Below, piece after piece: positions 28,390 to 30,319 of a stretch of 64,000 nt of DNA. Position 1 is the first letter of the stretch; every line of letters starts with the position of its first letter. The translations under genes were made by a program, and so were the position numbers. Below the pieces are notes generated by a model. That model saw only the letters and a program-made list of their open reading frames with translations. It ran no database searches and was not told the origin of the DNA. The stretch is from an uncultured Solirubrobacterales bacterium (GTDB lineage: Bacteria > Actinomycetota > Thermoleophilia > Solirubrobacterales > Solirubrobacteraceae): the NCBI GenBank assembly GCA_963828535.1, contig CAWHEM010000010.1:7280-71279 (forward strand), given 5' to 3'.

Positions 28390-28500
28390 TAGCGCTTCCT
28401 CCTTCCAACGATTCGGCATTTGGGCGCGCGCGGCACGCTCCGCGCGCGGCGGACCGGCGAGTCTAGCAACGGGTTTGGCCGCCCGGAAGGGGCGGCCGAG

Positions 28501-28801
28501 TCAGGCGGCGCGGTGCTGCATCGACGCTTCGGGAGCCACCGCGACCTCGGGAAACTCGAGCTCGGCACCGCAGCGCATGCAGACCGCGTCGTAGAGCTTG
28601 ATCACTCGGCCGCAGCTGGGACATTCCCGCCGCAGCTCCTGGTTGTCGAACCGGTAGAAGATGGCGGTGAGCAGGCCGAGGAACGGAACCAGTGCCGGAG
28701 ATCATGAACCAGATGAAGAACGAGCTGCCCTTCATCCGGCCGACCAGCCCGCCGGCGAGCCCGAAGCAGAACATGATCACCAATAGACCACCGCCGGCCA
28801 T
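28501..28801 (-). CDS. Small membrane protein with C-terminal zinc ribbon (frameshifted)
   Basis: Hydrophobic N-terminus (GLAGGLVGRMKGSSFFIWF), then in a shifted frame RRECPSCG...CMRCGAELEFP. Confidence 0.65.
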
Positions 28802-28811
28802 GGCTAACCGT

Positions 28812-29007
28812 TCACCAGACGAGCGTTTTTACTGCCCACAGCACCGCGATCACCACGGCAACGGCAACGACCGTCCAGAACACCGCCGTGACGATGCCGA
28901 TGACCAGCTTGATCGCCAGCGCGACCGCCGCGATCAATACAACTCCGGCCACCGCCTTGCGCAGGACCGGTGTCCGGGCCCGGCGATCCCTCTAGTTGGG
29001 TTTGCAT
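28812..29007 (-). CDS. Small two-TM membrane protein (frameshifted)
   Basis: VLRKAVAGVVLIAAVALAIKLVIGIVTAVFWTVVAVAVVIAVLWAVKTLVW*. Confidence 0.6.
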
Positions 29008-29011
29008 ACGA

Positions 29012-29231
29012 TCAGCGTACCGCGCCGCCGAACGCCGGCAGTCGGCGATTCGCAGGGATCAGTCGAAGACGCGCTTGAGGTGCTCGAAGCGCGATGCGGG
29101 CTTCGGCGTCACGGCCGTCGAAGCGCAGCCGAGCGAGCCGGTAGCGGCGGACCGCCGCCGTGCCGGGCTCGGTCGCCGACGACACGCCGATCGGCGACGA
29201 GCAGAACCTTGGATGGAGTGGGGCGTGTCAT
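29012..29231 (-). CDS. Possible small basic hypothetical protein
   Basis: ATG at 29231 (MTRPTPSKVLLVA..), then ..RYRLARLRFDGRDAEARIALRAPQARLRLIP..; needs a frameshift. Confidence 0.3.
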
Positions 29232-29289
29232 GGCAAGCATGATGATCCTCCCTGCTAAGGCCCACATTGGCCCGCCGGTATAAACATCC

Positions 29290-29996
29290 TCAGCGCCGTC
29301 GGGCCGCGCGGCTGGCCGCGCCGGGCCACGGCGTGATCGAGCGCCTCCCGCGCGGGCGCCTGCAGGCGGCGACGCATCCGCCAGCGCGCGCCGGAGAAGG
29401 CGAGATTGGCCAGCGTGGCGAAGCCCGGACTCGTCGGCGCGCAGAGGCCAGCAGCAGGTGAGCGACGCGATCGGCCGCGGGCAGCTCGGGGTCGGTGGCC
29501 TTGACGCACAGGCAGTAGACGCGCCGGTCGCCCGCGGTGACGACCAGCAGCGCTCCCGCCTGCCCGACGCAGCCAGACCCCGAGCTCGCCGCGCTCCGAG
29601 ACCAGCCCGGTGCGCTCGTAGAGGGCTCGTGCGTCGTGGCCGATCAGATCGCCCAGCAGCAGCATCGCGCGCTGCTCGGCCTGCGGGGCGGCCCGCGCGG
29701 GTGCCGAGCGGGGCTCACGACATTCGCCCCCCGGGCCGCGTAGAGCTCGGGAATGATCCAGGCATGGGCGAGCAGGATCGCGCTCACCGGAAGGGTGATC
29801 GGCTTGAGCACGCCGAGCAGGACCGCGGTGATGCACGAACGGGACGGTCTGGGATACGGTGCTCAGCGTCCACAGCTGTCCCGTGCGGGCGAGCGAGCGC
29901 GCGGTGGCGCGAGGGCGCCACGTGGACCGCTGCCAGCTCGGGCAGCTGGCTCGAGCGCGCTGGGGAGCCGGCGATCTGCGCGCCGGCGTCAGCCAC
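29290..29996 (-). CDS. Hypothetical membrane-anchored protein with Cys-containing cytoplasmic domain (multiple frameshifts)
   Basis: Stitched: ..TVPFVITAVLLGVLKPITLPVSAILLAHAWIIPELYAARGANVV..QAEQRAMLLLGDLIGHDARALYERTG..RRVYCLCVKATDPELPAADRVAHLLLALRADESGFATLAN..; GTG overlaps the end of the upstream gene. Confidence 0.65.
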
Positions 29997-30217
29997 CGGC
30001 GATGGGCCGGCGAAGGATCACCAGCGGCTCGTCGAGCGGCAGCTCGTGGACCTGCTCGGCGTGACCCTCGCCGCGTGAGATCACGGCGAAGTAGCCCGCA
30101 TCGAGCTGCGCTCGGAATGCCGTCGAGCGGCCTGCTGCACCGCCTCGCCGTCCTGCGCGGTCCACTCCGCGAGCGTGGTGTGGCCGGTCTGTGATCCATG
30201 CGGATGAGTCGGGACAT
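29989..30217 (-). CDS. ~75-aa protein with C-terminal diglycine (-RRPIAGG*), frameshifted
   Basis: AGGAGG SD plus ATG at 30217. Stitched MSRLIRMDxTGHTTLAEWTAQDGEAVQQAAxTAFRAQLDAGYFAVISRGEGHAEQVHELPLDEPLVILRRPIAGG-TGA. TACGAT -10 at 30246-30251. Confidence 0.7.
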
Positions 30218-30319
30218 CGCGCCTCCTGGGGTCGGGTGCCAGCACATCGTACGCCCAGGCCGGGAAGGTTCTCGCCCCTCGGCACGTCATCTCCGTGCAG
30301 ATGCCCACGACCGACCCGC

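Follow-up and report, generated by a model that had tools for sequence, protein, structure and literature searches.

The window, the whole 64,000-nucleotide stretch of DNA analysed here from an uncultured Solirubrobacterales bacterium, carries on its minus strand two overlapping genes, which encode a small protein ending in Gly-Gly and a larger partner protein with an invariant cysteine. Judging by the loci compared in bacteria and phages, the two genes are kept together, and it is likely that the cysteine acts chemically on the Gly-Gly tail in some way. We regard the pair as real and unnamed and as kin to ubiquitin-like (Ubl) and carrier systems; there is a fair chance that it is of a new kind. 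Its features in the window are the following.

30246–30251, minus strand: -10-like hexamer TACGAT; a matching hexamer occurs in 17 of 17 relatives, versus 15% of shuffles
30222–30227, minus strand: Shine-Dalgarno sequence AGGAGG, 4 nt upstream of the ATG; 16 of 17 relatives have an SD-like word
29989–30217, minus strand: gene of the small Gly-Gly protein, a predicted divergent beta-grasp; 74 residues in relatives; frameshifts near 30190 and 30125
29992–29997, minus strand: terminal Gly-Gly codons with TGA directly after; last Gly in 72 of 72 small proteins, penultimate Gly in 71 of 72
29290–29996, minus strand: partner gene, about 220 residues in relatives; at least five frame changes; stop at 29290 or 29255
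29745–29880 (approximate), minus strand: hydrophobic stretch of the partner with a central Pro, a likely membrane anchor or hairpin
29506–29508, minus strand: invariant Cys codon of the partner; 74 of 75 partners, and 82 of 82 in the metagenome set (best 80 of 127)
29470–29472, minus strand: invariant Asp codon of the partner (P-x-x-D), where the model begins the helix that follows the Cys strand; 75 of 75 partners

The pair is flanked by a cupredoxin/ECF-sigma/gatB block on one side and by two small membrane ORFs followed by ilvB on the other. Both genes are interrupted by indels in the window assembly. Mapped by intact homologues, the small gene consists of three frame pieces (30217–30191, 30188–30129 and 30120–29992), running from an ATG at 30217 to a TGA at 29991–29989, and the partner begins with a GTG at 29996, which gives an 8-nt overlap with the small gene stop, and continues from its start piece into five profile-matching pieces in two alternating frames. 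The adjoining gatB gene is likewise split, into four frame pieces. Because gatB is split too and both genes of the pair are intact in relatives, the indels most likely stem from errors of the assembly; that the pair is a true pseudogene was rejected, gatB being equally broken. The source genome (G000) is 74% complete and consists of 13 contigs. An earlier note, made from the letters of the window alone, had proposed a hidden module of two indel-broken genes, with a small protein of about 75 residues ending in Gly-Gly, a -10 element and a Shine-Dalgarno sequence of its own and a partner whose start overlaps it. With the frames corrected via the relatives, where the small protein has 74–75 residues and ends in Gly-Gly directly before the stop, all of this stands.

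The upstream signals are shared by the relatives. A TA-x-x-[AC]-T hexamer lies within 60 nt upstream of the small gene in all 17 relatives that could be scored (one further locus is too short), 32–41 nt before the start in 16 of them. A sigma-70 consensus scan found no full promoter near the small gene.

A DNA search of 40 relatives returned 19 other loci. Eighteen of these loci were parsed into an intact small gene and a downstream partner, and the nineteenth (L007) was parsed separately; among the intact relatives the small protein has a mean column identity of 82% and the partner one of 59%. Both families are large: in wider searches, 7,962 of 8,000 and 7,998 of 7,998 scored candidates passed, and the homologues bear source names from Solirubrobacteraceae. 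Among 120 genomes of the family, the small gene is present in 102 and the partner in 108, and every genome with the small gene also has the partner, so that the pair occurs in 102 of 120 genomes, mostly as two paralogous pairs each. Among 151 genomes of the class, the same 34 match both profiles. Pairs are also found in other Actinomycetota, an Elusimicrobia MAG, Bradyrhizobium plasmids, viral contigs of up to 436 kb and jumbo phages.

The linkage of the two genes is tight. Counted over distinct loci (20 duplicate or own loci removed), 72 of 74 small genes are followed by a partner within 1.2 kb, and a small gene lies upstream in 72 of 74 partner loci, so the co-occurrence in bacteria and phages that the earlier note had put forward as a check is borne out in both directions. 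The pattern is broken by one small gene that stands alone, one locus with the order reversed and one partner without a small gene. A metagenome set of 79 loci, retrieved with a partner motif from which both the Cys and the Gly-Gly are absent, gives the same picture: of the distinct loci that extend 900 nt or more upstream, 43 of 43 contain a small gene (best 80 of 127). The partner is not read in the same frame relative to the small gene at every locus; read-through is thus not conserved, and the idea that the pair is a single fused gene was rejected on this ground.

The pair comes in several forms. We refer to the window's form as type A and to a second chromosomal pair, located between thiD and ilvD, as type B; the type B partner has a single N-terminal hydrophobic segment. 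In the source genome the type B pair is intact (contig C13, 116.5–117.4 kb; L100:856-1743), and its small protein ends in Gly-Gly plus Arg. A third type comprises six stand-alone small genes ending in Gly-Gly-Gly, in genomes that also carry both pairs; these genes (L033 and L137–L141, around 1500–1820) have no partner within 1.5 kb. In a jumbo phage (L066/L068:4180-5300) the small protein is fused in frame to the partner right after the Gly-Gly. The fused gene is present in two assemblies, which are identical over the stretch read; a one-base change would split it, so the fusion may be recent.

All 72 small proteins have the last Gly, and 71 have the penultimate one as well; 60 end in a free Gly-Gly followed by the stop, 10 carry 1–9 extra residues, one ends in Ala-Gly and one is fused. 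Rows were selected with profiles that contain the Gly-Gly, so these counts may be favoured; the viral and metagenome loci were found via the partner. The metagenome tails (n = 57; best 80 of 127) comprise 51 Gly-Gly-stop, 2 Ala-Gly-stop, 3 Gly-Gly plus one residue and 1 other. The free Gly-Gly is found in all 25 type A small proteins, and 16 of 21 type B proteins with displayed tails have 1–9 residues after it. In the source genome, only 344 of 28,485 stop-terminated frames of at least 65 residues (1.2%) end in Gly-Gly; the Gly-Gly terminus of the small protein is far above chance.

The model of the small protein (20-row alignment, pLDDT 89) has the order beta-beta-alpha-beta-beta-beta with a free tail. 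The listed Foldseek rows are almost all beta-grasp domains (RA, ubiquitin, PB1, UBX), with E values of at least 0.02 and none significant. VIA ranks PB1 best (Z 5.0, rmsd 3.1 Å, 63 residues aligned), followed by ULD, RBD, UBX, USP7-Ubl and SUMO at Z 4.0–4.4. The small protein is thus predicted to be a divergent beta-grasp; the beta-grasp fold that had been suggested from the tail is matched by the topology of the model and by nearly all of the structural neighbours listed for it, although the scores are not strong. The nearest named cluster in the Atlas is ThiS (0.77), a lead only. The ThiS profile (PF02597) matches one of 72 members, a paralog, with E = 0.008 and 17.1 bits versus a cut-off of 22.5, which agrees with the earlier remark that the small protein does not read like ThiS or MoaD. 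That neither gene belongs to a named family also holds: Pfam, PHROGs and NCBIfam scans of the pair gave nothing over cut-off, PADLOC had no match for six proteins, and the best E values of PDB sequence searches with the two profiles were 0.43 and 0.49.

Across 75 partner domains the most conserved positions are Asp (75), Cys (74), Pro (74), Ala (74), an Asp-Glu pair (71 and 70) and Asn (59), in keeping with the Cys and the Pro/Asp motif that had been picked out in the window. The sole row without the Cys comes from a phage with two partner copies, of which it is the second. In the metagenome set, retrieved with a motif that leaves the Cys out, the Cys is present in 82 of 82 rows, 70 of them distinct (best 80 of 127). 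A second Cys two residues before the invariant one is typical of the window's type and occurs in 25 of 75 partners overall.

Most actinobacterial partners also carry a hydrophobic segment. The partner had been described as membrane-anchored with two transmembrane segments. The hydrophobic stretch itself was found, but Kyte-Doolittle analysis of 25 window-type partners gives one clear segment in 20, two in 4 and none in 1; the stretch of about 40 residues with a central invariant Pro fits a hairpin. Such segments are present in 24 of 25 type A partners, in 12 of 13 of type B and in the majority of the remaining actinobacterial partners, one of which has it at the C-terminus; of 21 distinct viral loci, only 1 has one. 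A membrane anchor is therefore a likely feature of the actinobacterial partners and not of the family as a whole. Many phage partners (L063–L067 and L078–L097) have, instead of the anchor, a Thr/Trp/Asn-rich low-complexity region followed by a charged helix. Three type B partners of one genus (L114, L116 and L122) have a long Gly/Asp-rich insertion in the domain and keep the Cys.

The partner domain was modelled from the 75 rows with a pLDDT of 93 as two helices, four strands and then further helices, and the invariant Cys is located at the end of the fourth strand (residues 63–68). Foldseek found nothing significant for it in the PDB (E of at least 0.87), and an Atlas feature search gave no usable match. 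In VIA, polo boxes rank first (Z 5.5). For residues 1–98 the listed rows include six RWD-domain entries (Z 3.2–4.1, rmsd 3.5–6.5 Å over 85–90 residues), and a BRISC chain is listed in the same Z range for residues 1–107. RWD is described in PMC1779556 as an inactive form of the E2 fold. The VIA top 50 contains no catalytically active E2, which is compatible with the fold all the same. UQ_con and Prok-E2 profiles match 0 of 75 partners at E of 0.1 or below, and in an hhalign comparison with two bacterial E2 sequences the partner profile reached a probability of 0.1, equal to the reversed control (the profile is shallow). E2/UBC enzymes carry a His-Pro-Asn motif before the Cys. Among partner columns conserved at 90% or more there are no His-Pro-Asn columns, and no His of any kind. 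The predicted fold, a helix, a four-stranded sheet and further helices, is weakly RWD/UBC-like; because the RWD/UBC rows are weak and the E2 profile comparison is negative, the E2 link is a lead and not a membership.

A connection between the two proteins is suggested by a natural loss of the small gene. Six genomes of the family have the partner at the type B thiD-[small]-partner-ilvD locus and lack the small gene genome-wide. In five of these loci the partner follows thiD directly; the sixth is truncated at a contig end and has ilvD downstream. The Cys column of the six orphan partners reads H, R, R, R, Q and T, while the Cys is kept in 18 of 18 type B loci that have the small gene. The orphan partners are on long branches (1.59 and 1.45, versus a median tip of 0.18 and a same-genus thiD stem of 0.17). 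Five of the six come from one genus, and a single origin of all six is not rejected (AU p = 0.44), so that the joint loss of small gene and Cys is one or two events. Five orphan partners have a Cys one residue earlier, which means that the Cys may have shifted rather than gone; only the partner of G521 is without any Cys. The Cys is also retained in a few partners that have no small gene beside them (L098). On balance, the co-loss seen in these sequences points to a Cys that is kept for the sake of the Gly-Gly protein.

No dedicated activating enzyme accompanies the pair in the loci searched. With three E1 and two JAB queries, tblastn found no match in 207 partly overlapping loci (941 kb, flanks of 1.5–8 kb), so the reported absence of E1, ThiF and JAB genes from the neighbourhood holds beyond the window. 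The source genome has one ThiF-family gene over cut-off, which is rhodanese-fused (MoeZ-type) and located beside CysM and JAB genes; a gene next to it is presumably CysO-like, going by its sequence and position. UQ_con has no match in this genome. The free Gly-Gly of most members has to be activated at the expense of ATP, and a MoeZ-CysO-CysM-JAB cluster is encoded elsewhere in the host genome; the pair is therefore probably not self-sufficient. According to PMC3227635, mycobacterial MoeZR sulfurates both MoaD and CysO; serving several Gly-Gly carriers, it is a precedent for a shared E1. The product described for MoeZ/MoeB-type E1s in PMC3227635 and PMC8561144 is a thiocarboxylate and not a thioester handed to an E2; Urm1 also conjugates to proteins, in a manner dependent on acceptor cysteines (PMC8561144).

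Our preferred explanation is that a host E1 of the MoeZ type, encoded elsewhere, would activate the Gly-Gly tail of the small protein, that the partner Cys would act as an E2-like acceptor and take the tail as a thioester, and that the partner would then pass the small protein to a target near the membrane. Phages would employ the same kit in a soluble form and rely on the host's E1. To this whole chain, an E2-like partner charged by a host E1 and tagging a membrane-side target, we assign somewhat less than an even chance: no structural match is significant, and no target, E3 or deconjugase is linked to the pair. Alternatively, the small protein could be a sulfur carrier like CysO, MoaD or Urm1, with MoeZ thiocarboxylating its tail and the partner Cys taking the sulfur (as an acyl-disulfide, then a persulfide) for a membrane-side thiolation, cofactor or redox step. 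The rhodanese-ThiF gene in the CysO/CysM/JAB cluster, the only over-cut-off E1 of the source genome, agrees with such a role, as do the position of the paralogous pair between thiD and ilvD and the one paralog that ThiS matches at E = 0.008. Four of the six stand-alone third-type genes are found, in three contexts, by moeA, a PBP_like gene, or mobA plus an aldehyde ferredoxin oxidoreductase, and one is near a TauE sulfite exporter. However, that ThiS match is a single one, below cut-off, among 72 members; the partner is neither fused nor linked to a sulfur-using enzyme; the window pair sits between the cupredoxin/gatB region and ilvB with variable neighbours; and the pair is common in phages among unrelated genes. 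We consider a sulfur carrier unlikely.

The partner could also be a cysteine protease or transpeptidase for Gly-Gly-X bonds, similar to the lone E2 of E2-CBASS; it would process the small protein by trimming or release and might be able to capture it with no E1 involved. Such an enzyme would explain the lack of an E1 in the 207 loci and would have substrates in the 16 of 21 type B tails with residues after the Gly-Gly and in the phage fusion just after it. A precedent is an E2 that cuts after Gly and needs no E1 for conjugation (bioRxiv 10.1101/2022.05.25.493364), but there the activity needs His87, whereas no partner His column reaches 90% conservation. In 60 of 72 small proteins, including all 25 of the window's type, the Gly-Gly is free and leaves nothing to cleave, the variable frame of the partner leaves no conserved read-through product, and a host JAB could do the trimming. 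As the E1-free route needs both a residue after the Gly and a His, it fits the tailed type B proteins and the fused phage gene but not the free Gly-Gly majority, and as a general account it is improbable. The last reading that we weighed is non-covalent: the small protein would bind and regulate the partner, or serve phages as a decoy for host Ubl defence enzymes, with the Cys serving at an interface, in metal binding or in redox chemistry. Plain interaction modules are common among beta-grasp and RWD domains and make up most of the fold rows obtained here; the orphan partner is kept in five of five sampled genomes of one genus, which implies a function without the small protein; and the window's type has the second Cys two residues before the invariant one. 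Yet this second Cys is present in only 25 of 75 partners, and a free terminal Gly is kept at about 20–40% identity across bacteria and phages together with a single invariant Cys. Such joint conservation usually marks tail chemistry, as in ubiquitin, ThiS and MoaD, and a purely non-covalent pair seems to us quite unlikely.

Among the closest described systems are the Ubl plus E2 (UBC) pairs and the Bil/Bub operons (PMC11601596; PMC11601603; PMC1779556), with which the pair shares tight gene coupling, a terminal Gly on a protein predicted to be beta-grasp-like and a one-Cys partner whose predicted topology is weakly RWD/UBC-like. The bacterial Ubl conjugation operons described in PMC11601596 and PMC11601603 have their own E1 and peptidase and are sparsely distributed. 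Unlike the Bil/Bub and Ubl-E2 systems of these papers, the pair locus has no E1, DUB/JAB or E3, and the partner has no UBC/Prok-E2 match and no His-Pro-Asn but does have a likely membrane anchor; unlike Bil/Bub, the pair is fixed in the chromosomes of a bacterial family and is also found in phages. The lone E2 of Serratia marcescens E2-CBASS (bioRxiv 10.1101/2022.05.25.493364) is likewise a Cys enzyme beside a C-terminal-Gly protein with no E1, but it acts on a CD-NTase that has a residue beyond the Gly, and its catalysis is His-dependent, whereas the pair has a 74-residue beta-grasp-like protein with a mostly free Gly-Gly and no conserved His. ThiS, MoaD and CysO with MoeZ (PMC3227635) and Urm1 (PMC8561144) are small Gly-Gly-ended beta-grasp proteins, as is predicted here, and can share one E1 encoded elsewhere; unlike ThiS, MoaD and CysO, the small protein has no over-cut-off profile match, has a dedicated Cys partner and no linked synthase, and is widespread in phages. 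No description of the pair was found in the literature by title or abstract start; supplements, including that of PMC1779556, may list such families. It is possible, if still doubtful, that the pair is a self-contained two-gene conjugation system with a beta-grasp family and a cysteine-enzyme fold of its own, fixed twice in Solirubrobacterales chromosomes as membrane-anchored paralogs, soluble in jumbo phages and with no dedicated E1, E3 or deconjugase. A two-gene version of Ubl conjugation, near-core in an abundant family of soil bacteria as two membrane-anchored paralogs and present in jumbo phages too, would bring ubiquitin-like chemistry into everyday membrane physiology and into the way phages take over their hosts, and would add a new cysteine-enzyme family. 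Natural controls exist in the partners that lack both the small gene and the Cys, a Cys-to-Gly paralog, the fused form and the tailed forms.

The search for further members produced several additional observations. Two phages (L060:3183-4318 and L067:3245-6498) have two or three partner copies per small gene, one copy with Gly in place of the Cys, and in L091:4021-4509 an ORF that we take by eye to be HNH-like lies between the small gene and the partner. A fold search of BFVD returned an unnamed viral protein (E 0.0025, TM 0.60) and an uncharacterized protein of Agrobacterium phage Atu_ph07 (E 0.08). Annotated phages gave no tblastn match with three queries. Scans of viral contigs gave three 15-residue matches with the window-type small protein, unconfirmed by broader profiles, and no match with the window-type partner or with one other small protein. 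G374/L051 was rejected as a family member, having neither Gly-Gly nor partner, and P0124 and P0125, tried as poly-Ubl repeats, are unrelated repeat proteins. A genome of the same order (G040) has a cluster with a complete E1, two UQ_con-type E2s and a JAB (L112/L113, G040:C26:5.7-11 kb) and has no match for either gene of the pair.

The surroundings of the type A pair also have recurring elements. The two small membrane ORFs between the pair and ilvB (window 28463–29007, minus strand) encode about 60–64 residues, one with a C-x-x-C zinc-ribbon-like end, and have no Pfam match; the first is present in 17 of 31 type A loci, the window's included. A short basic ORF of about 55 residues lies 3' of the partner (window 29060–29235, minus strand, frameshifted) and, judging from translations, is found in many relatives, not all, among them L002, L003, L006, L015, L016 and L019. 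In 6 of 25 type A loci (L004, L005, L006, L012, L013 and L016) there is no ATG, GTG or TTG between the small gene stop and the invariant N-terminal motif of the partner, which suggests non-standard starts or coupled re-initiation of the partner.
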